Source: Trichlorobacter lovleyi SZ (lineage in GTDB: Bacteria > Desulfobacterota > Desulfuromonadia > Geobacterales > Pseudopelobacteraceae). From it: DNA of 32,000 nucleotides. The translations under genes were made by a program, and so were the position numbers. Location of the stretch: the NCBI RefSeq assembly GCF_000020385.1, contig NC_010815.1:1-32000 (forward strand), in the 5' to 3' direction. Below, piece after piece: positions 13,741-31,794 of this stretch (positions within the stretch are counted from its first letter, which is position 1; each line of letters starts with the position of its first letter). The notes under the pieces are model-generated. The model made no database searches. It saw only the letters and a program-made list of their open reading frames with translations, and was not told where the DNA came from.

Positions 13741-13829
13741 TGATTTATTTTGCTTCTGCACTGATTCGGCAGAATATGACGAACTGCGTTCCTAGCTGAA
13801 TAGTTGCGGCATGTCAAGAGGTTAGTCGT

Positions 13830-17208: not shown

Positions 17209-18677
17209 TAGTCGTCCCTGAAAAAGTCCGGAATTTGCTCAGACGGTGTTGAGTTGAATGGGGGATAGTCTCCCCCAGCTGAGAAATGTCCGTTCTTTTA
17301 CAAGCCAAAATAAGAGGAGCTTGAGCAGCTTCCTCAGGTTGTACCCACAAGCGGCAAGCAGGGCGTTGATCTTGTCACCTTCTGCACCCTTGAGGTGGTT
17401 TCTGTCCATCCGGTGATCAACTTTCAGGTGACCGATGATCGGTTCAATGGCACTGCGTCTCTTGTACCATGCCCATTCACTGGGCTTCATGCTGCTCTTG
17501 CGTTTGTTGGCTAAGTGGACGGTGGTTCCGTTCAGTGAGCTGGGTACTCCCTTGTAGCCTTTGTCACAGTAGGCATTGCCTGGAGTGATGCCGGTTATCT
17601 GAGCTGCCTGTTTCAGCGCTCCCTTGAGCGTATGGCCATCATACGGATTACCATCCTTGGCCTGGGTACCGATGATCCAGTTGTCTTTTGATGTGCTGAC
17701 AATGGATACCTTGCAGCCAAATTCGTATTTCTTGTGACTCTTGCCCTTGGCGATGCAGCTGACTTCTGGAGCATGCAGGCTGTACAGCTTGTTTTTGTCA
17801 TGCTGCTTCTGGTTGAAAATTCTGCGGGACCGTTCAAGCAGGGTAGTCAGTGTCTGATCAGGATTTGCGATCTTTCTGAAAATGTCCCTGATGACTCGGC
17901 CCAGATAGATCTTGAGACGTTTCAGCTCCCGCTTGGCCCGATTCATCTGACGGGCATGCTTGTAACGTCCATGCTTGATGTAGGCCTTCTTGCCCAGACG
18001 CTCATAGCTCTGACGCAACTGAATGCCACGTTCTTTGGCAAGCTTGACCAGTGCAACCCGGGCCTTGTGATACAGTCTGGCATCAGTGGGATAGGCAATG
18101 GCCTTTTCCTGTACCGTGGTGTCTACGTTGACTCGCTCAAGTGACTGCGGTGTGATGTCGTTTCTACGCACAGCGGTTGCAATGGTTGCCTGTAGCAGTT
18201 TCTCTACCCCTTTGGAGCCGATCCGCTTTCTCCACTTTACCAGGGTGGTGGGATCAAGGGGCAGACGGTGCTGGAAGAATTCAAAACCACAGAAGTACTG
18301 CCAGTACGGATTCTCGACAAAGCGGGCAACGACTGATTCATCTGATTCGTTAAAGGCGTGCTTCAGGTAGTGCAGACCAACCAGCAAACGAATCGGTACA
18401 CCGGGACGGCCCATCTTGACTGAGTACAGGGGGCCAAACTCTCTTTCAAAGAACTGCCAGTCGATTTGATCTGCCAGACGATACAGTTCATGCTGGCGAT
18501 CGAGCATCTGATCAAGGCGGGAACGAAACAAGTCGCCCTGGTCAGAAATCTGAACTTTGGGTTGCATGAAATCACCGGAAATTGAAGGATGAACTACTAT
18601 TTCTGGTGATTTTATCAAAGTATAATGCAAATACAAATCAATAATTACAAGTTGTTATAATGCTTCAGGGACGACTA
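17209..18677 (-). mobile_element. IS5-family insertion sequence (about 1.47 kb)
   Basis: Terminal inverted repeats TAGTCGTCCCTGAA (17209-17222) and TTCAGGGACGACTA (18664-18677). The outer TA on each side could be part of the repeat or a 2-bp target duplication. It lies 16 bp from the IS3 right end and 95 bp from the receptor stop at 18773. Confidence 0.8.
17239..18567 (-). CDS. IS5-family DDE transposase
   Basis: Start placed at the ATG at 18567 (MQPKVQISDQGDLF...). It has an InsH-like N-terminal domain (GRPGVPIRLLVGLHYLKHAFNESDE), then the DDE region VDTTVQEKAIAYPTD ... CDKGYKG ... RSAIEPIIGHLK, colinear with E. coli IS5 InsH. Confidence 0.88.
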   Translation of the reverse strand: MQPKVQISDQGDLFRSRLDQMLDRQHELYRLADQIDWQFFEREFGPLYSVKMGRPGVPIRLLVGLHYLKHAFNESDESVVARFVENPYWQYFCGFEFFQHRLPLDPTTLVKWRKRIGSKGVEKLLQATIATAVRRNDITPQSLERVNVDTTVQEKAIAYPTDARLYHKARVALVKLAKERGIQLRQSYERLGKKAYIKHGRYKHARQMNRAKRELKRLKIYLGRVIRDIFRKIANPDQTLTTLLERSRRIFNQKQHDKNKLYSLHAPEVSCIAKGKSHKKYEFGCKVSIVSTSKDNWIIGTQAKDGNPYDGHTLKGALKQAAQITGITPGNAYCDKGYKGVPSSLNGTTVHLANKRKSSMKPSEWAWYKRRSAIEPIIGHLKVDHRMDRNHLKGAEGDKINALLAACGYNLRKLLKLLLFWLVKERTFLSWGRLSPIQLNTV

Positions 18678-18772: not shown

Positions 18773-20647
18773 TCAAAACCTCACCTGCACGCCCCCCAGC
18801 GCACGGATGCCGTCATCGGGATGTCCGTAGTGGTTCTGGTAACGGACATTACACAGGTTGTCAATTTTGGCAAAGATATCTGCCTTGATCTTTTTGTAGG
18901 TCAACGGCTGGGTAACACGAAGATCTGCTGTCAGATAATCGTTCATCTTCTGCATAACCAGATTCTCTGCTGGGCTATAGCGCACACCCTCATAACGGAG
19001 CGATGCTTCCAGGCGCGTTTTTACGTCTGGGATGGTGTACTGTGCCGTCGCCTTTAGCTTGATATCAGGCGTGTAGGGCAGGTCTTTTCCCGTATCCCGG
19101 TTTTTTGAACTCTGATAAATACACGACAGGTCACCGCTGAAACCGGATTCCCAACTTGATTTTGCCGTTACTTCAATGCCTTGCCGCTCGGCTCCGGCTA
19201 TATTGATCGGACGGTAGATAAGATCGGCGCCCCGTTGCGATGTGATCAGATCCCAGGTGTCTACTCTGAAAAGAGTGGCCTGAATCTGTCTGTTTTTGGC
19301 AAAACGGTACTCAAGACTCATATCGTATGAAAGCACCTTTTCGGTTTTTAGGTCTGGATTGCCCCTGCTTTGATCAATGGAGCCGTGTGTACTTTGATAG
19401 AGCTGTTCAAAGGTAGGAACATTGGTTACATAGCCAACCCGCATCTTCAGCAGAGTATTTTGGGTTGCAGCCCAACCAAGACCGAGCACCCCACCAGGGG
19501 TGAAGCCAAAATCATTAGTGATATCGCCACGGGCGCCAGCTGTTGCCGTAATATCTCCAAAACGTTTGTCAAACTGGGCATTCAAGCCGTTTCTGAACCG
19601 GTTGTGTCTTCCCGCCAGGCTGTGTTCATAATTATCAAATTCCGACATGCCGCCAAGCCGGAATTCCCACTTTTCTTGTTCATCAAGCCAACTGGTATCC
19701 AGCTTCAGGCCAACTTTCCGATCATCAAGAGTAGCGGTATAGCCCTGCTGAGATCTGTCCTTCAGGTTGAGCAGATCACCGTAGCTGTTCAGGGTGTAGG
19801 AGCCAGTCTCAAGCAAGGCCCCGGAAATGCGGCCATCAATCGATCCTTTACGGTACTGCTGACGCGCATTGGGGGTTTCATTGTCAATCGGCCCGGAAAC
19901 GCCGTATTCAGCCTGATAATAGCGCCCGTTGACCTCATATTTGTTGCCGTTTTTTATACTGCGATTCCAGTTGAGAGCTGCACTGCCATCGTTACGGTCA
20001 CTGTTGATACGTCTTCCATCACGGTGATTAAAGGTACCGGTTAGCAGCAGGTTGCCGTCTCCAACAGCCAAAGCCTGACTTGCGCTGGTCTGCAACAGGC
20101 CGTATGAACCTCCGGCAGCCTTAATGGAGCTTTTAAGCGTTTCCCCTTTGGTGTCACGCTTGATCTCACGGGTAATAATATTGATGGCGCCATCACTGCC
20201 GCCGGGACCCAGCCAGACCGGAACCGGCGGTTTAAATACCGTCACCGACTCAATCAGTTCGACCGGAATGGCATTCAGTTCCATCCCCCCGCTCTGATTG
20301 CTGTTCATGGGCCTACCGTTCAACAGTATCAGCACGCCGCTGGATTTCCCGGAGCCCCGGATGGCGATGCGGGTACCCATGCCGGAGGTTGGATACACAT
20401 CAACGCCAGGCATGGTTTTTAGAATCTCTTCCAAATTTGAATGGTTCCGTTTGATGATTTCAGCCCGAGTGACGTTGGTGACTTCCTGAGGATAATTTTT
20501 AATATACTCATCCAACCGGTCGGCAGTAACCACCACCTCGCCCAATGCGTAGGAGGATGGCGATCCCTTAACCGTTTCAGCAGCTACGGAACCGGCTGCC
20601 AACAGCACAACTGCTGCAGTTGGCAGTGCAATGGTACGATAGTTCAT
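18773..20647 (-). CDS. TonB-dependent outer-membrane receptor, BtuB-sized (624 aa)
   Basis: Signal peptide (..LLAAGSVAAE), TonB box GEVVVTA, plug domain, a long beta-barrel and a terminal aromatic residue (..GGVQVRF). It is the last gene of the riboswitch-controlled operon. Corrinoid specificity is inferred from context only. Confidence 0.85.
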   Translation of the reverse strand: MNYRTIALPTAAVVLLAAGSVAAETVKGSPSSYALGEVVVTADRLDEYIKNYPQEVTNVTRAEIIKRNHSNLEEILKTMPGVDVYPTSGMGTRIAIRGSGKSSGVLILLNGRPMNSNQSGGMELNAIPVELIESVTVFKPPVPVWLGPGGSDGAINIITREIKRDTKGETLKSSIKAAGGSYGLLQTSASQALAVGDGNLLLTGTFNHRDGRRINSDRNDGSAALNWNRSIKNGNKYEVNGRYYQAEYGVSGPIDNETPNARQQYRKGSIDGRISGALLETGSYTLNSYGDLLNLKDRSQQGYTATLDDRKVGLKLDTSWLDEQEKWEFRLGGMSEFDNYEHSLAGRHNRFRNGLNAQFDKRFGDITATAGARGDITNDFGFTPGGVLGLGWAATQNTLLKMRVGYVTNVPTFEQLYQSTHGSIDQSRGNPDLKTEKVLSYDMSLEYRFAKNRQIQATLFRVDTWDLITSQRGADLIYRPINIAGAERQGIEVTAKSSWESGFSGDLSCIYQSSKNRDTGKDLPYTPDIKLKATAQYTIPDVKTRLEASLRYEGVRYSPAENLVMQKMNDYLTADLRVTQPLTYKKIKADIFAKIDNLCNVRYQNHYGHPDDGIRALGGVQVRF

Positions 20648-20680
20648 ACGATATACTCCTTCATGTGATGCCTTTCCTGT

Positions 20681-21415
20681 TTATTCAAGACGAAAGACCA
20701 CCGGCATAATGATTTCAGCGGCAACCGGCGGTTTGGGAAAAGGGGCCACACCTTTCACCGTTTCCACGGCGCTATTGTCCAGCAGCGTATGGCCGCTGCC
20801 CTCTTTGACGTGGATTGAACGGACGCTACCGTCTTCTGCCACCACAAACGCCAAAACGACTCTGCCGCTCCAGCCCCTGCGACGTGCAAGCTGTGGATAG
20901 GTAAGGTGGCTCATGATCAGATCACGGATATAGGTAAAATGCTGGGCCCGGTACCGTTGCTGGGCCTGTCCTGAGGAGACTGTACCTCCACTTGATATCA
21001 CAGCAGGCTGTGATACAGAATGAGTTACAATGTTCGCAGCACCTCTTGCAGTCGGAGTGCCGCTGCTGCTTTCACTGACTGCATTAACGGCTTGGGTATC
21101 AGGCGGCATAACTGCCGCTGTATGTGGCGCCGCTGCAGCAACTGTTTGAGGTGTTGTTTGAAGCTGCTTTTGCTGAACAGGCTTCGGCTGCGCAGAAACC
21201 GGCTGATTCGCTGGTTTCTGCGGCTGCTGCGGCTGTATATCAGCCCTTTGCTGCGCCCCCTGCTGCCGCTCCGGCATTGTAGTGGTTGCAAGGGTAAAAT
21301 CGATACTGATCGGCGGGACAGAAGTGAGCGCAGAGCCAGCAAACAGCAGCACGACACAGAGCAGGCCGACATGCAGACCTAAAGAAATGCCGTACCACTT
21401 GACCTGACTATCCAT
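20681..21415 (-). CDS. tonB: TonB energy transducer
   Basis: N-terminal TM anchor, a Pro/Gln-rich spacer (QPQQPQKPANQPVSAQPKPVQQKQ) and a C-terminal TonB domain (YPQLARRRGWSGRVVLAFVVAEDGSV...). Overlaps the exbD stop. Confidence 0.85.
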   Translation of the reverse strand: MDSQVKWYGISLGLHVGLLCVVLLFAGSALTSVPPISIDFTLATTTMPERQQGAQQRADIQPQQPQKPANQPVSAQPKPVQQKQLQTTPQTVAAAAPHTAAVMPPDTQAVNAVSESSSGTPTARGAANIVTHSVSQPAVISSGGTVSSGQAQQRYRAQHFTYIRDLIMSHLTYPQLARRRGWSGRVVLAFVVAEDGSVRSIHVKEGSGHTLLDNSAVETVKGVAPFPKPPVAAEIIMPVVFRLE

Positions 21416-21791
21416 TGATGCTCTCTGTCTGAAGACTCAGTTTCTTGAAACCCATTTGGGTAACAGAATCCAGAACCTCTACAAACCCTTGTAGCAGCAG
21501 GCTTCTGTCGGCCCGTATCAAAACCGGTGCTGCTCGATCTACAGCGGATAAAGACTGTTTAAGCAGGGGAAGCGATGTTGGTTGTCCGTCAAGAAAGAGC
21601 CTGCCATCCCTGTTTATCTCTATGGTATGCCCTTGCAGCGCAGCGCTTGCCCCCTTTGCCGCCTTGGGCAACTGGATTGGAATGCTTCCTTGGGCAATAA
21701 ACGTAGAAGTAGTCAGTACAATAGTAAGCAATACCAGCATGATATCAATAAACGGGATAACGTTGATAACGCTAACTTCTTTCTCCTCCAT
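21408..21791 (-). CDS. exbD: ExbD/TolR-family protein
   Basis: 127 aa. [18 protein letters not shown] is a TM helix with the conserved Asp, followed by a periplasmic domain (..[15 protein letters not shown]). Confidence 0.88.
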
Positions 21792-22206
21792 TACGGGCCT
21801 CCCATGCCAGCAATGTTTCCTTGGCTTGTCGAACCAAGATATTGTAGATCGTTACCGCAGGGATGGCGACCACCAGCCCGATTGCGGTTGCCTTCAACGC
21901 CAGAGCCAGCCCAGTCATAATTTTTGTAGCATCAACAAAACCTTGTTGCCCCATTGTCGAAAATGTCAGCATAATCCCAAGCACTGTACCCAATAGGCCG
22001 ATATAAGGTGCATTGCTGCCAACTGTTGCAATAATATGCAGCTTACGTGTCAGAGCCAGTTCCAGCTCCTTCTTGTTCGTAAACTTCGTGCTGTCAAGCC
22101 TGCGATAAAAAGCCTTGCGCTCTAACGCTACAGCGACAGCAACAACACTCATGATCAGCAATAAGCCGATCACCCCATAATCAATAGCTGCCTTTAACCA
22201 ATCCAT
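21772..22206 (-). CDS. exbB: ExbB/TolQ (MotA family) proton-channel protein, short form
   Basis: 144 aa with [15 protein letters not shown] ... [14 protein letters not shown], the typical ExbB TM2/TM3 signature. Confidence 0.88.
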
Positions 22207-22250
22207 TTTATTTCTCCGTTATCTTTTAAGGCATAGTAATCACTGAATAC

Positions 22251-25200
22251 TTACCGGTTTCGTCTGAATCCGAAGCCTATCAACCCCACCAGTCCCACAA
22301 AACCCAGTATGAACAGCCAGGGGATCGGAGCCGAGGCCGCGCCGCTCTGTTGCGCCCCGGTTTCTTTCATCTCAAACCCTTCCACCTGCTTTCCCTTTGC
22401 CGCCTTGCCACTGCCGTCAGGGGCCGCGCCGCTTGCCCCCTGTTTGCTCGGTTGCGCCGTTGTCTGCGCTGCGGACTGCCTACCCTGCTGTCCGCTTCTG
22501 GCTGCATCCGGCTGTTTCATGTTTTGCAGCGCCTGTTTGAAGCCGGGGGCCAACGGTTTCAGACCCGGCACAGAGAGCAGGGTGGCGGTGGTAAATTCGG
22601 TCAGTTGCGGGTTGTTGCAGGTATGATCACAGCAGGCCAGCCCCACTTCCTGAACCGTTTTTGCATACTCCTCTGCCAGTTTTTCAACCACTTGGCTGTC
22701 CGGCTTCCAATACTGCTTGCGCACCGTCTCCAGCATCCGGGCCACCACTGACTGATAGGCCCACATATTTTTTGACTTGCGGAACATATCTTTAATCCCC
22801 AGGCCGTTGCGATCCAGCACCCAGGTTTCATGCATCTCCTGCCATTTGGCGGCATCCACCGCCTCCGGCACGGTTACCTGCCAGCCCCAAAGATGTTCCG
22901 TCACCTTGTCCACAAAACGTGCCCCGGCGTAGCCTTCCTTCATCATCGCCTTGATCCACTCCGGGTTCAGGTAGCGGGAGCGCATCTCCCGCCCCATCAT
23001 CTTTTCAAGGGTCTCCTGCACCGGCTGCTTCGGGTTGGTCATGTTGGTGACAAATACCTCTGGCGTCTTGCCGTCCACGGCCCGGATCGCCATGGCGGTG
23101 CCCCCCAGGTACTGAAAGAAATCGTCATTATCCAGGGTGGCAATAACATTGGAAGAACGGCTGTGAATGGCGATCTTGCTGCCGGACAGCGCGTTCTTCA
23201 GCAGGGTGTCCCCCAGCTTCTTGCCGTTATGTTCGGCGCTGTCACCCCAGAACCCCTGGCCGTAGAGGTGGCTCATCCGCATGAAGTAGACATCAACTAC
23301 CTGTTTTTCATTGTCCCAAGTATTGGAAGCTACAATCACCTTGTCCAGATTGGTGCCGTAGGCTCCGGACGGCTCGGTAAAGATGCGTACCGAGGCCAGC
23401 CGCTGCGCCTTTTCCTCCGAGACCCCTTTTGTCAGCAGCATCCTGCGGGTCTTCTCGACATTGCTGCGGATCAGGTTGTCCACTTCCTGCTGATCACGCG
23501 CTGTACTGACCGACTTGTCCAGCAGATCCATCAGGTTTGGAAACAGGTCGCGGTAGAGACCGGAGGGGACCATGGTGACATCAATTCGACCACGCCCCAG
23601 CTCGCCACGGGGGATAACTTCCACACCCTGCACCCGCCCCCTTTCATCCCACTTGGGGCGCACCCCCATCAGGTACATGATCTGCGATTCCATCACCCCT
23701 TCATGGCGGATGGTCTCGGTGGCCCAGATGTTGAAGGTCAGCTTGTCCGGGTAGACACCGTGACGTTTCCGATAACCGTCAATCAGCTCCTGCGCCAGTT
23801 TTTTCCCGGTGTTGTAGGTGCCGGGTGAGGGAACAAAGGCAGGGTCAAAGGAGTAAAAGTTCTTGCCGGTGGGGAGCGAATCCGGGTTCCTGATCGGGTC
23901 ATTGCCGCTGCCGGAAGGGATATAATTCCCGGCCAGGGCAGCTACGAAGGAATCCAGCTCCCGTTTGCCGCTGGCCTCAATGGCCTGTTCCAGGGCGGCA
24001 ATCCGCTTTTCCCGCTCGGCAGGGGTAAGGTTTTTCTCTATGGCGACAATTGCCTCTGCCGTACTGCGGCGGTAGCCTGCTTCCGGAGATCTGCCAAAGG
24101 TATGCAGACCGAACGGCGAAACCTTCTCCCCGATCTCCTTCAGGTAGTCGTCCAGCTCTTCTGCCTGCTCCGGGGTGCTGATGCTCGTTAGCTTCAGATC
24201 GGTCAGTATCCCGGTCTTGCGGGCCAACGTATTGATATCCTCCAGTTTTGCTGCGGCAAGCTGGGGCGATTTCTCACGGGCGGCGGTGTAATCGCTGATC
24301 AGGGCAGCAAGCAGCTTTGCCTCACGATTCATCCCGGACTTGTCCAGGGGGGGCGTCATGTAGTCAATAACCGTTGCCATGCCGCGCCGCTTGGCCTGCA
24401 GACCTTCACCCACATCATCCACGATGTAGGGGTAGATGTTGGGCAGTTCCTGAATCAGCAGCTCTGGCGGGTCTTCGCGGGTAAAACCGACCTCCTTGCC
24501 TGAAAGCCACTCATGGGTGCCGTGGGTGCCGATATGGGCCACGGCATCGGCCTTGAAGCCCCGTTTCAGCCAGAGATGAAAGGCGATATACTGGTGGTGC
24601 GGGGCGATATGGATATCGTGGTACAGCTTCTTGATATCCTGCTCCCACCCCCGCGAAGGCTGGGGGGTGAAGAGGATCTTGCCGTAACGAACGCCGGGCA
24701 GTACAATAAATTTTCTCCCCTTGGGATCGCTCCAGGTCATGATTTTCGCCTGATCCGGTTCGCCCCAGTCCTTGATCACCGACCTGCGGAACCTGTCCGG
24801 CAGCTCCATGAACCAGCTTTTGTAGACCTGTACCGGCAGCAGCAGGGCATGGCCGCTTCTGGCCAGCCGGTCTATCTCAGCCGGGGCCCAGTTGCCGATA
24901 TTGCGACCATAGGCGTGGACATCATCAAAAAGCTGGTCTTTGGAGACAGCCGTGACACCGGCATCGTACCCTTCAGCCTTCAAGCGGGCCAGCAGCTCAT
25001 ACAGGCTTTCCGGCATGACATTCAGGTAGGCAGCGCCGATGTTCTGTTTGCCCGGCGGATAGTTGTAGTAGATCAGGGCGATATGTTTGTCGCGGTTCTG
25101 CTTCTGCTGCAGGGCAAGCCAGCGTTTGACCCGTTGGGTCAGACGCTCGATCCGTTCAGGTATCGGGCGGGTCTCCACATATTCCATCCCGCTGGCCTTG

Positions 25201-26351
25201 TCCTTTATCCGTTCCTTGCTGGCCACCACGGTGGGCTGAATGATCCCCGCCAGTTCCGGCAAGCCGATGGAAGAACTACGCTCGAAGATATCCAGGCCAA
25301 CCGGTGACTTCTCCCACTCCTCCCTTGACTGGGAATGCAGGGTGACCGCATCAATAACCGGCACCCCGAGCCGGGTCAGGATCGGTACGGCCCGCTGCGG
25401 GGTAGTGCCTACCTTCAGGGAGATCCCGACAACCACCTGCACCCTGGCCTTGCCATTTTCATCAAACAAAAACTGCTCCACCGTTTTTTCCGACGGATAG
25501 CCGTAGACCGGCAGCACGTTCAGCCCCTGTCTTTCAAGCGAATCAATCAGACTGTCCAGCAGGGCTGTCTCGCCGTTGTCCACCAGATTCTTGTAAAACG
25601 GTATGCCGACCCAGGGGCCGGGCCTGCTGCGGTAGAGGCGCTGATACTCTGCAAAGCTGGTAACGGTGCGATGGCCGTCTTTCAGATAGATACCGAACTG
25701 GGGAACCTGGGCAGGGGGCACTGCCTTTACGGCAATACCGCAATCCCGTTGCAGCAGATACAGCACCATGTTGACGGCGTTATCCAGCCCTCCCTGCTGC
25801 ATGTATGAGGCAACCGTCCGGTCGTTTTGTAGCCCCAGATCCTTGTCGTCCTTGCCGTACATGCCGCCCACAGCGTAGACCTTCATCCCTTGCCGCATCA
25901 TGGCCTGCAGCGACGGTTTGAACGGCTCCAGGCCACGGCGATCCATGATATGGACGACACTGAATCCTCTGCTGCCTGGCTGTAAGGCCGGGAGCGCTGC
26001 GGCATCCCCTTTGGTCAGCACCCCAAACCGCACCTTGGCGCTCAGCTCCGGGTGGCGCTCCCTGATTGTCTGCACGGTTTTAACCGCTAGGCTGCTGTTG
26101 TAATCACCCAGGATCAGCCGGGCAAGAACCGGCGGTTGTGCAGGGGCTGCGCTGTCGGACGGGAGCGGCAGCAGAAGTATTGCAAATAAAGCCGCCAGCA
26201 TCAGCCACGCATTCTTTCGATTCCAGTTCAAGGATGATCTCAAGGCGGCGAGGAATTTGGCGACGCAGGCGTACACGAAGTACGTTGAGGAGCCAACGAC
26301 GAGCCAACGAAGAGAGCGCCTTGAAATGGAATCGGAATTATTCCGGAACAT
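22251..26351 (-). CDS. CobN / Mg-chelatase-H family protein, membrane-anchored at both ends (HmuS-like, not a canonical cytoplasmic CobN)
   Basis: 1366 aa with CobN-family blocks through the core (e.g. HIGTHGTHEWLSGKEVG). There is an N-terminal hydrophobic segment (AWLMLAALFAILLLPLPS) and a Gln/Ala/Gly-rich linker. A C-terminal TM helix plus basic tail follows (PIPWLFILGFVGLVGLIGFGFRRNR). The ATG at 26351 has GGAAGGTG upstream inside the previous gene. Alternative starts are the TTG at 26231 or the ATG at 26201. Confidence 0.85.
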   Translation of the reverse strand: MFRNNSDSISRRSLRWLVVGSSTYFVYACVAKFLAALRSSLNWNRKNAWLMLAALFAILLLPLPSDSAAPAQPPVLARLILGDYNSSLAVKTVQTIRERHPELSAKVRFGVLTKGDAAALPALQPGSRGFSVVHIMDRRGLEPFKPSLQAMMRQGMKVYAVGGMYGKDDKDLGLQNDRTVASYMQQGGLDNAVNMVLYLLQRDCGIAVKAVPPAQVPQFGIYLKDGHRTVTSFAEYQRLYRSRPGPWVGIPFYKNLVDNGETALLDSLIDSLERQGLNVLPVYGYPSEKTVEQFLFDENGKARVQVVVGISLKVGTTPQRAVPILTRLGVPVIDAVTLHSQSREEWEKSPVGLDIFERSSSIGLPELAGIIQPTVVASKERIKDKASGMEYVETRPIPERIERLTQRVKRWLALQQKQNRDKHIALIYYNYPPGKQNIGAAYLNVMPESLYELLARLKAEGYDAGVTAVSKDQLFDDVHAYGRNIGNWAPAEIDRLARSGHALLLPVQVYKSWFMELPDRFRRSVIKDWGEPDQAKIMTWSDPKGRKFIVLPGVRYGKILFTPQPSRGWEQDIKKLYHDIHIAPHHQYIAFHLWLKRGFKADAVAHIGTHGTHEWLSGKEVGFTREDPPELLIQELPNIYPYIVDDVGEGLQAKRRGMATVIDYMTPPLDKSGMNREAKLLAALISDYTAAREKSPQLAAAKLEDINTLARKTGILTDLKLTSISTPEQAEELDDYLKEIGEKVSPFGLHTFGRSPEAGYRRSTAEAIVAIEKNLTPAEREKRIAALEQAIEASGKRELDSFVAALAGNYIPSGSGNDPIRNPDSLPTGKNFYSFDPAFVPSPGTYNTGKKLAQELIDGYRKRHGVYPDKLTFNIWATETIRHEGVMESQIMYLMGVRPKWDERGRVQGVEVIPRGELGRGRIDVTMVPSGLYRDLFPNLMDLLDKSVSTARDQQEVDNLIRSNVEKTRRMLLTKGVSEEKAQRLASVRIFTEPSGAYGTNLDKVIVASNTWDNEKQVVDVYFMRMSHLYGQGFWGDSAEHNGKKLGDTLLKNALSGSKIAIHSRSSNVIATLDNDDFFQYLGGTAMAIRAVDGKTPEVFVTNMTNPKQPVQETLEKMMGREMRSRYLNPEWIKAMMKEGYAGARFVDKVTEHLWGWQVTVPEAVDAAKWQEMHETWVLDRNGLGIKDMFRKSKNMWAYQSVVARMLETVRKQYWKPDSQVVEKLAEEYAKTVQEVGLACCDHTCNNPQLTEFTTATLLSVPGLKPLAPGFKQALQNMKQPDAARSGQQGRQSAAQTTAQPSKQGASGAAPDGSGKAAKGKQVEGFEMKETGAQQSGAASAPIPWLFILGFVGLVGLIGFGFRRNR

Positions 26352-26676
26352 AGATCACCTTCCCGTCCTTTAACTGATAGGCGGTGCCCAGCCGTTCACC
26401 CTCCCCGGAGAGCCGCTTGTCCGTCACCTTGCGAACCTTGATCTCTTTGCCTTTTTTGCTGATTACCTCGATCTTGCCATCAGCCGTCTTCTTGGTGATG
26501 GTTACCTCGGACTTCGGGTCCATCAGGTCCAGCATGTTGTAGGCCATGAACAGGGCGATCATCATACTGACGATGAAGACCACGCTGACATCAAACAGGT
26601 TGGCCACCCCGGAAATAGGATCTTCAAGGGGCTCATCATATTTATCAAAACGGTTGCGGCGTTTAAGATAGCGCAT
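26338..26676 (-). CDS. ExbD/TolR-like small membrane protein (DUF2149-type)
   Basis: 112 aa with a basic N-terminus and a single TM helix carrying an Asp (VANLFDVSVVFIVSMMIAL, compare Exb[12 protein letters not shown]). A small Lys-rich soluble domain follows. Overlaps both neighbours. Confidence 0.65.
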   Translation of the reverse strand: MRYLKRRNRFDKYDEPLEDPISGVANLFDVSVVFIVSMMIALFMAYNMLDLMDPKSEVTITKKTADGKIEVISKKGKEIKVRKVTDKRLSGEGERLGTAYQLKDGKVIYVPE

Positions 26677-27259
26677 CGCTACGCTCCTCCTGAGCCGGTT
26701 CGCTGGGGCCGCCCAACCGTTGCCGCAGTGTCTTCTCGGTAAAAAACTCCATCTCCCGCAGGTCGGCCCGCACCCATTTTTCCTTGACCAGCGACATCAG
26801 GTAGGCCAGCACGCTGCAGGCGAGACCAACAACAACCGTGGTAAAGGCGGTGACCATGCTGCCTGCCATCTTGGGCATGTCCCCCTGTGCCAGTGAGGAA
26901 AGGGATATCCCCATCGGGATCAGGGTTCCCATCAGGCCCAGCGCCGGCCCGACCCGGATGACAAAACGGATTTTGTCCAATGATTTGATCTGGGCCAGTT
27001 CGGCGGTCTGCAGCAGACGCTCTGCCTGCAGATCAAGGTCCGGTGTTGCTCCGCCCTCTTCCAGCGTTGCAGTCAACTGTTTCTGAAAGCGCTCAAGGGG
27101 GTTTGAGGTGTTACGCCGGCGTTCAATCCACTCCCGTAAAAAGCCACCGGCAAAGATGGCAACCCAAGCCACCAACAGCACCAGTCCGGCCACCACGGGG
27201 AACAGCAAAACCGATGAAATCAGATATAAAAAGGTCTCAAGACCGGCCAGAATATTCAT
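26663..27259 (-). CDS. MotA/TolQ/ExbB-family proton-channel protein (second copy, divergent)
   Basis: 198 aa. One N-terminal TM helix, a cytoplasmic loop, then GPALGLMGTLIPMG ... MVTAFTTVVVGLACSVLAYL. This aligns by eye with the ExbB signature of the 144-aa protein at 21772-22206. Confidence 0.75.
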   Translation of the reverse strand: MNILAGLETFLYLISSVLLFPVVAGLVLLVAWVAIFAGGFLREWIERRRNTSNPLERFQKQLTATLEEGGATPDLDLQAERLLQTAELAQIKSLDKIRFVIRVGPALGLMGTLIPMGISLSSLAQGDMPKMAGSMVTAFTTVVVGLACSVLAYLMSLVKEKWVRADLREMEFFTEKTLRQRLGGPSEPAQEERSDALS

Positions 27260-27957
27260 TTGGTATCTCCTTTGCGCATAAAAAAGCCTGCCAGCAGCGC
27301 CGCAGCCAGCAGTATCACCAGCAGCAGGGACTGGCTGCTGTTCCCACCCGCTGCTGCCGGTTGCATCTCCTTCAGAAATGAACCGTACATCCCTTTGGCC
27401 TGCTCAACCTTGGCCGGCAGAAACAGTGAGGCGATGAAATACAAGCCGATGGTGATCATGGCCAGGCCCAGCGCCGGGATGTTGTTGCCGCTTTCTCCTG
27501 ATTTTGTAAGCAGCATCACCAGCAGGGTCATAACGGCAAAGCTGCTGCCCAACACCAACCCCACGGCCCAGGGCAGCAGCGGCAGGCTGTGCAGGGCGGT
27601 CCAGGTTGAGAAGGTCATGGCGGTCAGACAGACCGGACAGGGGATCAGCAATGCCAGGGAGGAAGCCGGAGAACAGCGCCTACCCGGCTTCCCGATCAGC
27701 CAGCCGCCCCAGACGATCATTCCCAGCGCCATAACTCCATGCAGCCAGGGGCCGCCCTTGAGCAGCGGTTCAAGCAGCTTCAGCAACTGTACGGCCAGCA
27801 GGGCAATCAACTCAAACAGCAGCAGATACAGCCCCAGAGTCAACGCGATTCCTTTGCGGCTGACCTGACCATATCCCAGTCCGGTGCCGGTCTTGACGGC
27901 AAAGATTCCCAGGCTGAAGAGGGTGCCGCCGACCCAGAGCAACAGATTCAGATCCAT
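27256..27957 (-). CDS. Polytopic (about 7 TM) membrane protein with an intramembrane CPVC motif (DUF2162-like putative transporter)
   Basis: Highly hydrophobic. The motif LLIPCPVCLTAM lies inside predicted TM4. Start placed at the ATG at 27957 with AAAGGAAG 6 nt upstream. The ORF track begins at the TTG at 27972, overlapping the receptor stop. Confidence 0.65.
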   Translation of the reverse strand: MDLNLLLWVGGTLFSLGIFAVKTGTGLGYGQVSRKGIALTLGLYLLLFELIALLAVQLLKLLEPLLKGGPWLHGVMALGMIVWGGWLIGKPGRRCSPASSLALLIPCPVCLTAMTFSTWTALHSLPLLPWAVGLVLGSSFAVMTLLVMLLTKSGESGNNIPALGLAMITIGLYFIASLFLPAKVEQAKGMYGSFLKEMQPAAAGGNSSQSLLLVILLAAALLAGFFMRKGDTK

Positions 27958-27968
27958 GACGCTTCCTT

Positions 27969-30182
27969 TCAAAACTTGAAGCCCAGTTCTGCATAACAGG
28001 AACGGCCCGGCGCCAGGGAGGAAGAGTAGTAATGCTCGTCAAACAGGTTGGTGACAGCCAACGAGGCGGTGGCCCAGGCGGTAATTTTGTAACGCAACTT
28101 CAGGTCCACGGTGAAATAGGGGTCATTGCTGCCCTGTACGCCGTTGACGGTGTCGGTGTTGGTGTCGCTGGAATAGCGTTTACCCACATAGCGACCGGTT
28201 GCTGTGGCCCCAAAACTGCCGTAATCCAGATCAGCCCCCAGATTGAACATATGTTCCGGCACATCAGTTACCCGTTTGCCTACGGTTGCGGGAACTGCAC
28301 TGTTTTCCTTGATGGTTGCGTCGGTGTAGGTGTAATTGGCAAACAACCGCAACAGGGAGTCAAACTTCTGTTCTGCCTCAAGCTCTACCCCTCTGCTTTC
28401 GGCCTTACCTGCGTTGGCCTTGTCTTTCCAGGTGGGGGTGGTTGAAGTGCTGTAGATCAGGTCACTGATGTAGTTCTCAAAATAGGTGGCGGTAAATTTG
28501 GAACCTTTCCAGAGCCGCTGGCTGACACCTGCATCCCAGGAAATGACGGTTTCCGGTTTCAGGTTGGGGTTTCCGGCGTAGGTGGTGCCGCTGGAGGTGG
28601 TCCAGGTGCGGTAGAGGTCATACACTGTGGGCGCCCGAAATGCCTTGCCGCCGGATAATTTGAACGTGGTTGTGTCAAACGGTCTGTATACCAGCGCGCC
28701 TTTGGGGCTGAAGGCATCGGCGCTACGGGAACCGTAGGTTTGAGGATAGCCAACACTGCCGACCTGATTGGCATAACCGTCAAAGGTATCCCACCAGTCC
28801 TGCCGGAATCCGGCAAACAGGGTCAGTTTGTCCAGCAGAGCTATTTCACCTTCGGCAAACAGGGCAAAGGTGCGGTCGGTACCCTTTGATTCGTAGGTCA
28901 GGGCTCCTTTGGAGTTTTCATCCTGCCAGTTTGAGAGATTGTGCTCTCTGGAATGGGACCAGCCGGTGCGGTAGGCGCCACCCACGGTCAACAGATGCTT
29001 ATCCAGAATCGGTATTGAAGCCTGAATATCGGCATTAAAGGCGGCTGCCGGGGTATCGGACAGCTTGCCCGGCCCGCCGTTACGGGTACCGCCGTTGGGC
29101 GGCGCAGCCGAGGTGGGCGTGGTTCCCCAACTGGTCATCTGATCAAGATACCCCAGATTCAGCTTGTACTTGACCGTTGCCAGCTCTGTTTCAGCGCTAA
29201 ATCCATACAGGTGCTGATCACTGCCGCCATTTCCCCCGAGAAAGGATGCCTCCCGTACTGTGCCGTAGCTCCAGACTTCAGCGCCGCTACTGTTGCGCAG
29301 GTAGGTGGCCGGATTGTCGTAGGAATATTCGCCGGTTGACTTCATAAAAGTCAGCTTGAGCTTCGTATTGGAAGGAAGTTCGAGCTCTGCCTTGGCGGTC
29401 AGGTTGTCCTGCCAGGCACCGTTTTTGCCTTTGTCTCCCAGCCGATAGCGGGTTGCGCCGGTATAATCAGTGGTCGGCTCCCAGCCAGTGATACCAGCAG
29501 TCGGTTTGCTGCTTTGTACGTTGGTGTCACTGCGGTAGCCGTCGGTGGCCAGATAGTCGTTATGCAGGTAGAGTTTGATTTTCCCCAGATACTTGTCACC
29601 GTAGGAGGCGGCAACCCGTCTGGTATTTTGCATGCCGTTGGGACTGTCCAAAGCAAAACCGTAACCGCCAGTCAGGGTTAGTTCCCGCTTTTCAGGCATT
29701 CGGGTGATCATGTTGACCACCCCCCCCATGGCATATCCGCCGTAAAGACTGGAGGCCGGACCTTTAACCACTTCAATCCGTTCAAGGCTGCTGGGTGAAA
29801 TACCTACGGACACCACCGATCCGGCGTAAGGGCTGTTGATGGTAATGCCGTCCAGCATCACCAGCGTGCGGGACTGCCCCGGAATACCGCGCAGGGTAAT
29901 GGCAGACATCCGGTCCATCATCCCTTTGCCCCGAGTAGAGAGTACGCCAGGAGTGGTATTAATCGCCTCGTCTACTGTCGTGATATTCCGTTTTTCCATT
30001 TCCTCCTTTGTTACAACGGAGACACTGCCCGGTGCCGTTGCCAGATCCTGTTCAGTTCTGGTTGCCGTCACCACAACCTGTTCAAGCCTGGCTTCGCCAG
30101 GAACAGTCTCCGCCTGTGCGGTGCTGCACGCTGCCAGCGCCAGCCCCACCACCACGGCACACTTCTGCCTGTTTCTCTTCAT
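27969..30182 (-). CDS. TonB-dependent outer-membrane receptor (737 aa)
   Basis: Signal peptide (..ACSTAQAE), TonB box EQVVVTATR, plug (ITLRGIPGQSRTLVMLDGITIN), beta-barrel and terminal ..ELGFKF. It is the first gene after the tandem riboswitch leader. Confidence 0.88.
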   Translation of the reverse strand: MKRNRQKCAVVVGLALAACSTAQAETVPGEARLEQVVVTATRTEQDLATAPGSVSVVTKEEMEKRNITTVDEAINTTPGVLSTRGKGMMDRMSAITLRGIPGQSRTLVMLDGITINSPYAGSVVSVGISPSSLERIEVVKGPASSLYGGYAMGGVVNMITRMPEKRELTLTGGYGFALDSPNGMQNTRRVAASYGDKYLGKIKLYLHNDYLATDGYRSDTNVQSSKPTAGITGWEPTTDYTGATRYRLGDKGKNGAWQDNLTAKAELELPSNTKLKLTFMKSTGEYSYDNPATYLRNSSGAEVWSYGTVREASFLGGNGGSDQHLYGFSAETELATVKYKLNLGYLDQMTSWGTTPTSAAPPNGGTRNGGPGKLSDTPAAAFNADIQASIPILDKHLLTVGGAYRTGWSHSREHNLSNWQDENSKGALTYESKGTDRTFALFAEGEIALLDKLTLFAGFRQDWWDTFDGYANQVGSVGYPQTYGSRSADAFSPKGALVYRPFDTTTFKLSGGKAFRAPTVYDLYRTWTTSSGTTYAGNPNLKPETVISWDAGVSQRLWKGSKFTATYFENYISDLIYSTSTTPTWKDKANAGKAESRGVELEAEQKFDSLLRLFANYTYTDATIKENSAVPATVGKRVTDVPEHMFNLGADLDYGSFGATATGRYVGKRYSSDTNTDTVNGVQGSNDPYFTVDLKLRYKITAWATASLAVTNLFDEHYYSSSLAPGRSCYAELGFKF

Positions 30183-30360
30183 TACTTTCCCCCTCGGGTT
30201 GATATGCAGATGGAGCCGTCTTCCGGCTTAAGGCTACCTACTTACCCACCTTCCCAGGAATGCTCCCAGTGGTTGTTTCACCTCGTGGTGACGGGCTTTC
30301 GTTCCTATTACGGCTGCGGGGCAGCGGGGGTATTTAACCCCTCTTCCTCAACTCCATCTG
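30183..30360 (-). promoter_or_regulatory. Second, divergent cobalamin-riboswitch-like aptamer (30207-30360) plus SD region, in tandem with copy 3
   Basis: The minus-strand RNA is closed by a perfect 9-bp helix, CAGAUGGAG (30360-30352) with CUCCAUCUG (30215-30207). Inside it reads GAGGAAGAGGGGUUAAAUACCCCCGCUGCCCCGCAGCCGUAA .. CCACUGGGAGCAUUCCUGGGAAGG .. AAGCCGGAAGACGGCUCC. This is colinear with the AGGGAA-GGUGA-CCCGC-CUGUAA, CACUG-GGGAAG and B12-box blocks of the upstream aptamer. GAGGGGGAAAG (SD) and the AUG follow within 25 nt. Confidence 0.6.
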
Positions 30361-30375
30361 TTTGAAAACAAGCAC

Positions 30376-30413
30376 AAAAAAAGTCCGCCAATGCCAGAGC
30401 ATCAAGCGGACTT
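30376..30413 (-). terminator. Rho-independent terminator, expression platform of riboswitch copy 3
   Basis: Minus-strand AAGUCCGCUUGAUGCUCUGGCAUUGGCGGACUU hairpin followed by U7 (plus-strand A7 at 30376-30382). Confidence 0.75.
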
Positions 30414-30488
30414 TCCGTATTCAAAGTCGAACCGTTCAACCGGTTACTCTCCCTTTACCGTCGGGAACTGCGAGTAACAACAATCAGC

Positions 30489-30650
30489 GGCAGGTCTTCT
30501 GACTTGCGAGTCATCCTCCGGGCGTCTTCCCAATCTAAATGATCAGTGACGTTGTTGCCCTTCGTCATCGCTTACAGCGGCGGGTCCGCGGGGGAATAGC
30601 TCGTCAGAGCGTCACCCCTCTTCCCTTTTCACCCTTGCGGGCACCGTGAT
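30489..30650 (-). promoter_or_regulatory. Cobalamin riboswitch aptamer, copy 3
   Basis: Minus strand reads GGUGCCCGCAAGGGUGAAAAGGGAAGAGGGGUGACG..UUCCCCCGCGGACCCGCCGCUGUAAGCG..GUCACUGAUCAUUUAGAUUGGGAAGACG..AAGUCAGAAGACCUGCC. A TTGACA hexamer at 30739-30744 is a possible -35. Confidence 0.9.
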
Positions 30651-30752
30651 TCGTGCATATTCAGTTGTGTTTGTACTGCAGGTTGCCGGCTACCATCTTC
30701 ATAACCGGCTGATATCAAATGCCAAGTAATTTCGATGATGTCAATGACTATT

Positions 30753-31787: not shown

Positions 31788-31794
31788 GGCCTTG

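Follow-up and report, generated by a model that had tools for sequence, protein, structure and literature searches.

What does a CobN-like protein do in an operon of envelope genes that is headed by a cobalamin sensor? The question is raised by a window of 32,000 nucleotides from Trichlorobacter lovleyi SZ (G. lovleyi SZ in the literature cited here), for which an earlier note had proposed an undescribed, B12-starvation-induced machine salvaging tetrapyrroles or cobalt. From the leader onwards, the features are:

30472-30663, minus strand: cobalamin riboswitch aptamer 1 (RF00174, 107.3 bits, gathering score 31.5, E 3.3e-26, full model 1-189)
30376-30416, minus strand: intrinsic terminator hairpin after aptamer 1, GGAAAGUCCGC...GCGGACUUUUUUU, read directly in the sequence
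30197-30371, minus strand: cobalamin riboswitch aptamer 2 (RF00174, 65.5 bits, E 3.1e-14)
27969-30182, minus strand: TonB-dependent outer-membrane receptor 1, 737 aa, signal peptide (Pfam Plug and TonB_dep_Rec)
27256-27972, minus strand: DUF2162 polytopic inner-membrane protein with PCPVC, 238 aa (Pfam PF09930, 214 bits)
26663-27259, minus strand: MotA/ExbB-family proton-channel protein, HmuU-like, 198 aa (Pfam MotA_ExbB, 40 bits)
26338-26676, minus strand: DUF2149 single-pass membrane protein, HmuV-like, 112 aa (Pfam PF09919, 115 bits)
22251-26351, minus strand: CobN-family class-I (de)chelatase-like protein, BtuS type, 1366 aa (Pfam CobN-Mg_chel, 1029 bits)
21772-22206, minus strand: ExbB, short exbB2 type, 144 aa (NCBIfam TIGR02805, 151 bits, cut-off 135; Pfam MotA_ExbB, 101 bits)
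21408-21791, minus strand: ExbD, 127 aa (Pfam ExbD, 91 bits)
20681-21415, minus strand: TonB, 244 aa (Pfam TonB_C, 66.5 bits; NCBIfam tonB_Cterm, 69.8 bits, above cut-off)
18773-20647, minus strand: TonB-dependent receptor 2, weakly BtuB-like, 624 aa (Pfam Plug and TonB_dep_Rec)

ORF calling recovers all nine minus-strand genes (18773-30182), as tightly packed as had been claimed. Receptor 1 and DUF2162 overlap by 4 nt, as do DUF2162 and the MotA-like gene; the overlap is 14 nt at both the MotA-like/DUF2149 and DUF2149/CobN-like junctions, 20 nt between exbB and exbD and 8 nt between exbD and tonB, and the gaps are 44 nt (CobN-like/ExbB, the largest) and 33 nt (TonB/receptor 2). A single transcript is argued for because of the gene overlaps. 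Pfam matches for all nine ORFs exceed curated cut-offs and place them in the families first proposed, the ExbD-like label of the 112-aa protein excepted; the operon's own TonB system and its two receptors are recovered likewise. The leader was right in kind but not in number: RF00174 precedes the genes, so that the operon is indeed wired to a cobalamin sensor, yet the one switch that had been described is two complete tandem aptamers with a terminator between them. The hairpin (-25.3 kcal/mol, z = -4.05, equalled by 0/200 shuffles) was overlooked by a pattern scanner because of its long loop, and is likely the expression platform for transcription attenuation. Between the end of aptamer 2 and the start codon lie 15 nt, which contain a GAGGGGGAAAG ribosome-binding site. 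The tandem pair is kept in loci L001, L004 and L079.

The operon type is not undescribed. It was known beforehand as BtuS, with a predicted function: B12-regulated CobN-like proteins were so named, and metalloporphyrin salvage predicted, by Rodionov (2003) as cited in PMC6460266; a nine-gene cluster of the same order was apparently described on G. lovleyi pSZ77 by Wagner (2012; PMC3403914); and hmu-like operons behind cobalamin riboswitches were reported by Meslé (2023; PMC10100974). The resemblance to hmuRSTUV suggested earlier holds, for in P. gingivalis HmuS is CobN-like, HmuU belongs to MotA/TolQ/ExbB and HmuV to DUF2149 (PMC11681262), and HmuS of B. thetaiotaomicron is a proven heme dechelatase (PMC12583661). 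The architecture is shared; in Bacteroidota it is regulated by iron or heme (PMC12583661, PMC11681262). HmuY is absent here. It is well supported that the locus encodes a BtuS-type, Hmu-like envelope system under repression by cobalamin riboswitches.

The best PDB match of the CobN-like protein is HmuS (9D26, E 1e-141), followed by CobN (9UK9), and over the sequence as a whole it most resembles the former. It contains the motifs HIGTHG, VGEG, LDNDDFFQYLGG and ACCDHTCNNP. The Co2+ site of CobN is formed by H554, E593 and D1100 (bioRxiv 10.64898/2026.07.21.739949), which align with H610, E649 and D1076; conservation among the homologues is strict for these residues, for D1077 and for the cleft motifs. 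The cleft motif is of the CobN type (LD-N-DD-FFQ), the HmuS type being absent, and unlike HmuS the protein has Asp for His-1209, Gln for Glu-1212 and Val aligned to His-254, and lacks the Met-rich insertion. That the Co2+ site residues of CobN are retained while the hallmarks of HmuS (His-1209/Glu-1212, Met-rich insertion) are missing is, as judged from the alignments, a new point. The membrane anchoring put forward earlier agrees with hydrophobic segments at both ends (aa 50-68; aa 1343-1361, then RRNR), from which the protein is predicted to be extracytoplasmic and tethered by its C-terminal anchor.

The CPVC motif noticed before lies at aa 112-115 of the DUF2162 protein, as part of a PCPVC (aa 111-115) within a transmembrane helix; P111, C112 and P113 never vary among 43 homologues, of which 42 also have C115. 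About seven helices are indicated by hydropathy and by an AF2 model (pLDDT 78); a structural search of the PDB gave no significant hit. The MotA-like protein aligns with ExbB over the channel helices (hhalign E 2e-4), has no ExbB/TolQ match in NCBIfam and is distinct from the canonical ExbB of the operon. Its putative stator partner, the 112-aa protein labelled ExbD-like, resembles ExbD in topology, with a single membrane-spanning helix (aa 27-45) that carries an Asp; its family is nonetheless DUF2149, and profile-profile comparison with ExbD (hhalign) was not significant, with no detectable homology. N26 and D29 are invariant in 61/61 DUF2149 sequences and identity across phyla is 81-97%; AF2 modelled the protein with low confidence (pLDDT 56). 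Since the module stands alongside separate canonical ExbB/ExbD in 11 loci, and since archaeal relatives, having no outer membrane, retain both MotA-like and DUF2149, the pair is not simply the energiser of the receptor.

The four-gene core (DUF2162-MotA-DUF2149-CobN) is found again in some 50 bacterial loci spread over many phyla, an arrangement far beyond chance. A B12 riboswitch (RF00174) lies upstream in 28 of the 39 evaluable loci, across phyla, and is lacking in 11; it is also upstream in G. uraniireducens. The neighbours of the core are cobalt and corrinoid genes rather than iron genes: cbiM/cbiQ occur in 14 loci (within the module's same-strand gene run in 8, one archaeon included), in 6-7 the CobN-like gene is followed by CbiK, and CbiZ with a signal peptide, or a BtuF-CbiZ fusion, is found in 12. 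CbiZ is an established salvage enzyme (PMC3541065), and these forms of it point to corrinoid processing in the periplasm, although the window's own operon has none. This recurrence, the riboswitch linkage and the related operons with signal-peptide CbiZ, cbiMNQO and CbiK are new observations. In the window the adjoining pathway is, as had been said, the anaerobic route (CbiK, CbiD, CbiG, CbiJ, CbiC, CbiA, cbiMNQO), and the neighbouring CbiMNQO importer is riboswitch-controlled. Also in keeping with the earlier account, profile searches of the window's annotated ORFs found no ChlI, ChlD, CobS or CobT and no BtuC, BtuD or BtuF family; BtuCD was not seen recurrently across the related loci either, and CobS/CobT are missing from G. 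lovleyi SZ altogether (PMC3403914).

A TonB-dependent receptor lies within the module's same-strand gene run in 34 loci, and receptor 1 is the one conserved with the module; its best NCBIfam match is of the heme/hemoglobin type, below cut-off, and its best PDB matches are CirA and, at a similar level, BtuB. Receptor 2 matches BtuB best in both NCBIfam and the PDB, far under the equivalog cut-off (137 vs 599.7 bits), and its orthologues stand downstream of the CobN-like gene in L001, L004, L005, L009, L010, L058, L062 and L066. From their sequences, ligands cannot be assigned to the two receptors.

The explanation tentatively preferred, at rather less than an even chance, is a B12-starvation system in which corrinoids are imported and their cobalt is stripped or handled in the periplasm, proton-motive force replacing the AAA+ motor. 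When B12 is scarce, both riboswitches would open and the whole operon be made. The two receptors, powered by the operon's ExbB-ExbD-TonB, would take up a cobalt tetrapyrrole from outside, most likely a corrinoid, and deliver it to the periplasm. There the CobN-like protein would sit on the inner-membrane face, kept in place by the C-terminal anchor and perhaps by the N-terminal segment as well. The macrocycle would be bound in the cleft with the cobalt-binding residues, and cobalt removed or exchanged, in analogy to HmuS, which takes iron out of heme. The periplasm offers neither ATP nor an AAA+ motor, which is why mechanical work or gating is proposed to come from the dedicated MotA-like/DUF2149 proton channel, drawing on the proton-motive force. 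Freed Co2+ might pass inward via DUF2162, through its transmembrane PCPVC, and/or CbiMNQO to CbiK and the de novo anaerobic pathway. A periplasmic cobalt-tetrapyrrole mechanism is plausible given the CobN-type metal site and, in related operons, periplasmic CbiZ, cbiMNQO and CbiK. Against this reading, taking the metal out of a cobalt corrin is difficult chemistry, and no enzyme is known to do it. The 11 evaluable loci that lack a riboswitch, the operon's want of CbiZ, receptor ligands that sequence does not assign, and the missing relationships of DUF2162 to PDB structures and of DUF2149 to ExbD count against it as well.

The main rival, possible if somewhat less probable, is a BtuFCD-independent route carrying the intact corrinoid over both membranes with no metal removed, the CobN-like protein binding and handing off the tetrapyrrole, DUF2162 serving as conduit, MotA-like/DUF2149 as energiser, and periplasmic CbiZ trimming where present. 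Bacteroides fragilis has a riboswitch-linked hmu-like operon (PMC10100974). It is not known to make the corrin ring; harvested cobalt would hence be of little use to it, which favours salvage of the intact macrocycle, at least there. The heme site of HmuS in the head/neck, away from the catalytic cleft, and the speculation that HmuT carries heme inward (PMC12583661, PMC10100974) speak for the same route, as do the CbiZ forms within related operons, the lack of BtuCD from the window and of any recurrent BtuCD in the loci, and the weakly BtuB-like character of receptor 2. Yet strict conservation of the metal site and cleft motifs is unexpected in a mere binder, the homologous HmuS is a catalyst, and a whole ring has no need of the CbiMNQO and CbiK to which the module is repeatedly linked, in an archaeon too. 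That co-location may, for its part, result from a shared B12 regulon alone, which would count against cobalt stripping. The comparative data fit both cobalt stripping and intact import and do not separate the two.

Metal-free corrinoids are rare in nature, and the organism's own pathway puts cobalt in early via CbiK, so that it is doubtful whether the CobN-like protein works in the CobN direction, binding Co2+ in the periplasm and then inserting it into an imported metal-free corrinoid or passing it to CbiMN/DUF2162 for uptake. The CobN-type cleft, the linkage to cbiMNQO and the conserved cysteine/histidine motif ACCDHTCNNP, a candidate metal binder, would suit that role, as would a similar TBDR/CobN-like operon in P. 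aeruginosa (PA1921-PA1925), likened from its description, which is Zur-regulated and associated with raised cellular cobalt (PMC4542158); but a 1366-aa, six-domain enzyme with a motor seems more than a chaperone would need, and the sequence is closest overall to a dechelatase. Heme or iron acquisition, with the riboswitch incidental or governing only the first receptor, is quite improbable: the HmuS match, the subfamily of receptor 1 and the partial backup of BtuS2 by BtuS1 in B. fragilis growing on heme iron (PMC6460266) speak for it, against the missing HmuS residues, Met-rich insertion and HmuY, the riboswitch across phyla, the cobalt/corrinoid neighbours and the overlaps arguing for one transcript. 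An ordinary cytoplasmic, aerobic-type CobN with CobS/CobT encoded elsewhere is least credible of all. The Pfam family fits and homologues are publicly annotated as 'cobaltochelatase subunit CobN', yet the protein scores below every NCBIfam CobN/BchH equivalog cut-off (e.g. 900 vs 1619 bits), has a signal/anchor segment and a C-terminal transmembrane helix, lies among envelope genes in a CbiK-based host, and CobS/CobT are absent from window and genome.

Judging by the iron- or heme-regulated Hmu and the Zur-regulated PA1921-PA1925, the regulator of such envelope systems appears to track the metal wanted.

The nine-gene, minus-strand operon of T. lovleyi belongs to the B12-regulated, Hmu-like kind of gene cluster called BtuS. 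All nine open reading frames described in the earlier note are present and tightly packed: neighbouring genes overlap by 4-20 nt or are separated by 33 or 44 nt (ORF calls), and a Pfam check placed the products in the expected families. From 5' to 3', the leader and the operon comprise:

30472-30663, minus strand: cobalamin riboswitch aptamer 1 (RF00174, 107.3 bits)
30416-30376, minus strand: intrinsic terminator hairpin with a U7 tract, between the aptamers (z = -4.05)
30197-30371, minus strand: cobalamin riboswitch aptamer 2 (RF00174, 65.5 bits)
First gene, minus strand: receptor 1, 737 aa (Pfam Plug and TonB_dep_Rec)
Second gene, minus strand: DUF2162 protein, 238 aa (Pfam)
Third gene, minus strand: MotA-like protein, 198 aa (Pfam MotA_ExbB, 40 bits)
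Fourth gene, 26338-26676, minus strand: DUF2149 protein, 112 aa (Pfam)
Fifth gene, 22251-26351, minus strand: CobN-like protein, 1366 aa (Pfam CobN-Mg_chel, 1029 bits)
Sixth gene, minus strand: ExbB (Pfam; NCBIfam TIGR02805 exbB2 above cut-off)
Seventh gene, minus strand: ExbD (Pfam)
Eighth gene, minus strand: TonB (Pfam TonB_C; NCBIfam agrees)
Ninth gene, minus strand: receptor 2, 624 aa (Pfam Plug and TonB_dep_Rec)

All three families of an ExbB-ExbD-TonB energiser are adjacent in the operon (Pfam, NCBIfam). A pattern scan for promoters and terminators inside the operon, which also missed the leader terminator, gave none above shuffled expectation. NCBIfam and PDB sequence searches assigned a ligand to neither receptor. 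Family searches of the window found no ChlI, ChlD, CobS or CobT partner for the chelatase and no BtuCDF importer, as the earlier note had it, and ORF calls with Pfam found no HmuY-like gene in the operon.

The riboswitch leader was likewise recovered, as two complete RF00174 aptamers and not as the single element first supposed; both exceed the gathering score of 31.5 bits (covariance model) and lie on the same strand as, and 5' of, the first gene. Aptamer 2 ends 15 nt 5' of the ATG, and the ribosome-binding site falls within those 15 nt. The expression platforms appear to differ, aptamer 1 being followed by the intrinsic terminator and aptamer 2 abutting the ribosome-binding site; read in this way, the leader seems to control first transcription and then translation. 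Among the related loci compared (handles L001-L082), the tandem pair is kept in T. thiogenes (L001 5566-6154), in L004 and in G. uraniireducens (L079 6015-6463), and tandem aptamers are present in L009 and L044 too.

The surroundings form a dense B12 regulon island, with four RF00174 elements in 32 kb (823-1003, 13558-13752, 30197-30371 and 30472-30663), the two outside the operon leader being accompanied by cbiMNQO and by genes of the anaerobic route (CbiK, CbiD, CbiG, CbiJ, CbiC, CbiA, a CysG-like protein and tetrapyrrole methylases). The equivalent region of T. thiogenes has seven aptamers, including ones 5' of an HTH/cupin regulator, of metE and of a channel-cbiMNQO operon. Directly downstream of the operon two transposase genes, at 16235-17158 (plus strand) and 17239-18636 (minus strand), one a rve integrase and one of the DDE_Tnp_1/DUF772 type, stand between it and an HlyD-like gene and cbiMNQO; T. 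thiogenes has riboswitch-controlled genes in their place. The CbiM reading frame at 12717-13601 (294 aa) runs into the riboswitch at 13558-13752, its Pfam domain begins at aa 71 and the T. thiogenes protein has 225 aa; the true start is probably further downstream than the one listed. The methyltransferase gene upstream of the operon (30753-31922) was dropped as a partner because none of the related loci has a homologue.

Judged on motifs, insert and score cut-offs, the CobN-like protein is a relative of HmuS by architecture, yet the defined HmuS family does not include it, and it is not a canonical CobN either. Among PDB entries it matches HmuS best (9D26, E 1e-141), followed closely by CobN (9UK9, E 2e-133) and ChlH, and it falls under every CobN/BchH equivalog cut-off of NCBIfam, the best CobN score being that of NF004645 (900 bits vs a cut-off of 1619), with TIGR02257 at 638 vs 822. 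HmuS of B. thetaiotaomicron is a proven membrane-bound heme dechelatase that carries a transmembrane segment at each end, and its structure has been solved (Nath et al., PMC12583661); the HmuS family is marked by HFG(T/A)HG with His-538, by a cleft motif with His-1209 and Glu-1212, by a Met-rich insertion of ~120 aa, and, where head and neck meet, by the heme ligands Met-79 and His-254 (PMC12583661). In the window protein the superfamily motif HxG(T/A)HG reads HIGTHG (aa 606-611), aligned with HmuS His-538 and CobN H554. The cleft motif is LDNDDFFQYLGG, matching LDSDDYYQFEGG of CobN, where the HmuS family has LSLDHxxEFMGG, so that in the alignment Asp-1077 takes the place of His-1209 and Gln-1080 that of Glu-1212. 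The Met-rich insertion (domain IV of HmuS) is absent: HmuS 684-902 face residues 755-763, and the insert region spans 60 aa vs 229-475 aa in HmuS-type representatives. His-254 faces a Val in a pairwise alignment that is weak over the N-terminal region (E 3e-4) and does not cover Met-79.

The cobalt-type metal site is conserved. In a cryo-EM structure of CobN two Co2+ ions are held by H554, E593 and D1100 (bioRxiv 10.64898/2026.07.21.739949); the corresponding residues here are H610, E649 and D1076, invariant in alignment A1. The DD pair of the cleft is found in nearly all relatives fetched (two loci have DN), and the position of Gln-1080 is Q in bacterial relatives and D or G in archaeal ones. 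Among the nearest 150 cluster representatives (50% identity), 96 have DD and 28 DH, the HmuS type proper (DH plus the 229-475-aa insertion) being a distant minority of them. The idea that the DD variant tracks the riboswitch was rejected, for the riboswitch-less loci L049, L051 and L054-57 and the Lentisphaeria locus L082 also have DD. The latter, on a metagenome contig (7738-13927), encodes an FMN_bind protein, a 232-aa membrane protein, MotA_ExbB, DUF2149 and a distantly related CobN-like protein with the motif LSLDDIYQFMGG, with no receptor and no riboswitch; its FMN-binding protein might donate electrons in the periplasm.

Two hydropathy peaks of the window protein, aa 50-68 and 1343-1361, are flanked by positively charged tails, the C-terminal transmembrane helix is followed by RRNR, a long low-complexity linker is also present, and the N-terminal segment of the G. 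uraniireducens orthologue resembles a cleavable signal peptide. The bulk of the protein should thus be periplasmic, like HmuS, because of the hydrophobic or signal-like segment at one end and the transmembrane helix at the other. Close to the C-terminus, ACCDHTCNNP (aa 1239-1248) is kept unchanged in almost all close bacterial relatives, with E for D in two, and is missing from the betaproteobacterial loci L054-L057; distant membrane-anchored CobN-like relatives have CCHHTCGN or CCDCSCGN in its place, and HmuS retains two Cys only. This cysteine/histidine motif might serve metal binding or redox chemistry.

As for the membrane partners, the DUF2162 protein has about seven helices, and a transmembrane one contains the motif PCPVC, in which P111, C112 and P113 never vary and C115 is shared by 42 of 43 homologues. 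There is a resemblance to the CPx motifs of metal-translocating P-type ATPases. The AF2 model of the protein (pLDDT 78) has no significant Foldseek neighbour in the PDB (best E 0.3, TM 0.28); ferroportin, ZIP and VIT1, which top that list, are not evidence, their matches being non-significant. PDB sequence searches with DUF2162 and DUF2149 gave no matches. The 112-aa protein, called ExbD-like in the earlier note, is a DUF2149 protein, for which homology to ExbD is not detectable (hhalign probability 1.2%; no Pfam ExbD match). All that it has in common with ExbD is that it is single-pass and that its membrane helix contains an Asp, D29, which together with N26 is found in 61 of 61 sequences. 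By analogy, such a topology with a buried Asp is that of the stator subunits ExbD, TolR and MotB. DUF2149 is 81-97% identical across phyla vs 57-70% for the CobN-like protein (homologues P0241-P0360), an unusually strong constraint for a membrane protein of 112 aa; its AF2 model (pLDDT 56) is too poor for structure search. The MotA-like protein aligns with ExbB across the channel helices (hhalign, E 2e-4). Separate canonical ExbB and ExbD stand alongside the module (DUF2162, MotA-like, DUF2149, CobN-like) in the window and in 11 loci, and archaeal relatives, which have no outer membrane, retain the MotA-like and DUF2149 genes beside CobN-like genes; I therefore argue that the pair serves the CobN-like/DUF2162 part and not the receptors.

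Across genomes, the association of the module with riboswitches, with receptors, with genes for cobalt importers and with secreted CbiZ is conserved. A scan with one genome per species sampled 78 related loci; about 50 bacterial loci have the DUF2162-MotA-DUF2149-CobN core, and they belong to Desulfuromonadota, Desulfobacterota, Nitrospirota, Thermodesulfobacteriota, Brocadiia, Desantisbacteria and Betaproteobacteria, and a receptor lies within the same-strand gene run of the module in 34. Riboswitches were detected with an nhmmer profile built from Rfam-confirmed aptamers, which found all Rfam matches in eight Rfam-scanned loci, and with two Rfam scans. Counted over the 39 loci with enough upstream sequence, a same-strand B12 riboswitch lies upstream in 28; 25 of these are within 6.5 kb, L020 has the RF01482 variant, and in L018 and L022 the element is further upstream behind extra genes. 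The remaining 11 have none and include two Betaproteobacteria, a Brocadiia and a Caldimicrobium MAG. The closest genome is that of T. thiogenes, with a CobN-like protein 92% identical and the same gene order except that ExbB and ExbD are missing.

Clustering of all flanking ORFs brought out recurrent extra genes. cbiM/cbiQ occur in 14 loci, and in 8 of them, one archaeal, within the same same-strand run as the module; a cytoplasmic CbiK follows the CobN-like gene in 6-7. CbiZ is found in 12 loci, with a clear signal peptide on nearly all copies: those with an evident one lie inside the operons of L007, L008, L018, L028, L034, L038, L044, L051 and L064, two are signal-peptide BtuF-CbiZ fusions (L043 5395-7401 and L050 11480-13501), and a CN-hydrolase adjoins CbiZ in a few loci. 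These signal peptides suggest that CbiZ of related operons trims corrinoids in the periplasm; discussion of a periplasmic CbiZ in such operons was not found in the literature cited here. No recurrent AAA+ partner or BtuCD was seen among the flanking-ORF clusters of the 78 loci. The archaeal loci L069-L078 keep the CobN-like, MotA-like and DUF2149 genes with no receptor and no riboswitch, and L077 (Methanobacterium) has them with DUF2162, beside cbiM/cbiQ. At the G. uraniireducens locus (L079 3355-15751) the module is preceded by a CbiM-PDGLE fusion and an OprB-type porin, and a NikR-family regulator immediately follows TonB, a hint that sensing of nickel or cobalt ions may matter at this locus as well. 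In L015 a group II intron domain (RF00029, 62-217) lies 5' of a riboswitch-less operon copy.

The system was put forward in the earlier note as a candidate undescribed one, a claim that does not hold, because the kind is already known from BtuS (PMC6460266), from PMC10100974 and from PMC12583661. According to Rodionov et al. (2003, J Biol Chem, as cited in PMC6460266), BtuS are B12-element-regulated CobN-like proteins predicted to serve salvage of metallated tetrapyrroles and not biosynthesis, a category built on comparative genomics only; the window protein, in line with this definition as cited, is CobN-like, neither CobN nor ChlH, clustered with receptors and preceded by a B12 riboswitch. 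One genetic study, on B. fragilis BtuS1/BtuS2, tested heme iron and not corrinoids (PMC6460266), and hmu-like operons behind cobalamin riboswitches have been noted, with a suggested link to cobalamin (Meslé et al., PMC10100974). By its fit to the description, the operon is apparently the nine-gene cluster Glov_3667-Glov_3675 reported on pSZ77 of G. lovleyi (receptor ... CobN-ExbB-ExbD-TonB-receptor, role 'unknown'; Wagner et al. 2012, PMC3403914), which has a cobalamin biosynthesis cluster on either side and transposases in its vicinity (PMC3403914). A megablast of the region against the PLSDB plasmids gave no match. The 2012 account is without mention of riboswitches, DUF2162 or DUF2149; it gives 79% identity to the G. 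uraniireducens CobN-like orthologue, against 75% here.

Resemblance to Hmu (hmuYRSTUV of Porphyromonas/Bacteroides), which the earlier note had pointed out, is seen in several parts: both systems have a TonB-dependent receptor, a polytopic membrane protein, MotA/ExbB-family and DUF2149 proteins (HmuU and HmuV, respectively; PMC11681262) and a large CobN-like protein that has a hydrophobic segment at each end, and neither has an AAA+ partner. However, the gene order is R-T-U-V-S in the window and Y-R-S-T-U-V in Hmu, the HmuY hemophore is absent, an ExbB-ExbD-TonB set and a second receptor are added, and control is by B12 riboswitch instead of iron/heme; that the operon is a heme system is very improbable. 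With CobNST (CobN 9UK9, 7C6O) the window protein has in common the Pfam family, the six-domain plan, the Co2+-site residues and the DD...Q cleft, and forward chelation or metal chaperoning at such a site would be an improbable, though less remote, explanation. An ordinary CobN is hardly credible, given the scores below equivalog cut-offs, the membrane or signal segments and the lack of CobS/CobT in the window and anywhere in the G. lovleyi SZ genome (PMC3403914); unlike CobN, the protein is predicted to be extracytoplasmic and membrane-tethered, it adds ACCDHTCNNP, the linker and the transmembrane helix at its C-terminal end, and a proton-channel pair stands in place of the AAA+ motor. P. aeruginosa PA1921-PA1925 (methyltransferase, TonB-dependent receptor, CobN-like, 'ExbD' and hypothetical protein) is Zur-regulated (PMC4542158, PMC8531726); like the window, it joins a receptor, a CobN-like protein and small membrane proteins in one metal-starvation operon (PA1924/PA1925 compared by description), under zinc and not B12. 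The betaproteobacterial loci L054-L057, 46-47% identical and with neither riboswitch nor DUF2162, may be of this kind. A similar architecture appears to stand under three regulators, iron/heme (Hmu), Zur (PA1921-25, by description) and B12, a pattern which suggests that metal is what the machine delivers.

The reading I favour, tentatively and at somewhat short of an even chance, is a corrinoid import system induced by B12 starvation, with periplasmic stripping or handling of cobalt powered by proton-motive force in place of an AAA+ motor. When B12 is short, the receptors would import corrinoid; the tethered CobN-like protein would act on its cobalt; the MotA-like/DUF2149 pair would give proton-motive energy, replacing the missing AAA+ motor; and cobalt would enter via DUF2162 and/or CbiMNQO. 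Salvage of the intact ring without BtuFCD, rather unlikely in itself, is nonetheless a strong rival, because the chemistry would be unprecedented (no enzyme is known to remove cobalt from corrins), because the window operon has no CbiZ, which counts against cobalt stripping, and because of the riboswitch-linked version in B. fragilis (PMC10100974). This organism is not known to make the corrin ring. With BtuB-TonB-BtuFCD the window shares B12-riboswitch-controlled TonB-dependent receptors and a TonB system, but it has no BtuF or BtuCD, and the DUF2162/MotA-like/DUF2149/CobN-like set stands in their stead at the inner-membrane step. A bolder form of the cobalt-stripping reading, which I consider unlikely, would make this the first corrinoid dechelatase, a periplasmic, membrane-tethered, reversed class-I chelatase driven by a MotA-like/DUF2149 motor replacing CobST/ChlID; together with the secreted CbiZ of related operons it would dismantle foreign corrinoids in the periplasm and pass the cobalt through CbiMNQO/DUF2162 and CbiK to de novo B12, and together with Hmu and PA1922-25 it would represent a general machine for chelate import and metal stripping, with the regulator matching the metal.

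The analysis thus yields a sharper, testable hypothesis on cobalt stripping versus ring salvage. How anaerobes acquire cobalt, or recycle the numerous unusable cobamides in their surroundings, is poorly understood. The module is widespread in environmental anaerobes (Geobacteraceae, Desulfobacterota, Nitrospirota), with relatives in methanogens, and G. lovleyi is a corrinoid supplier in dechlorinating consortia. If the module merely duplicates BtuB-type uptake, the outcome would be an annotation correction only, these proteins not being 'cobaltochelatase subunit CobN'. If, on the other hand, cobalt tetrapyrroles are stripped or imported by proton-motive force, it would show class-I chelatases working without an AAA+ motor, give functions to DUF2162 and DUF2149, and add a new route to the cobalt and B12 economy of microbial communities.
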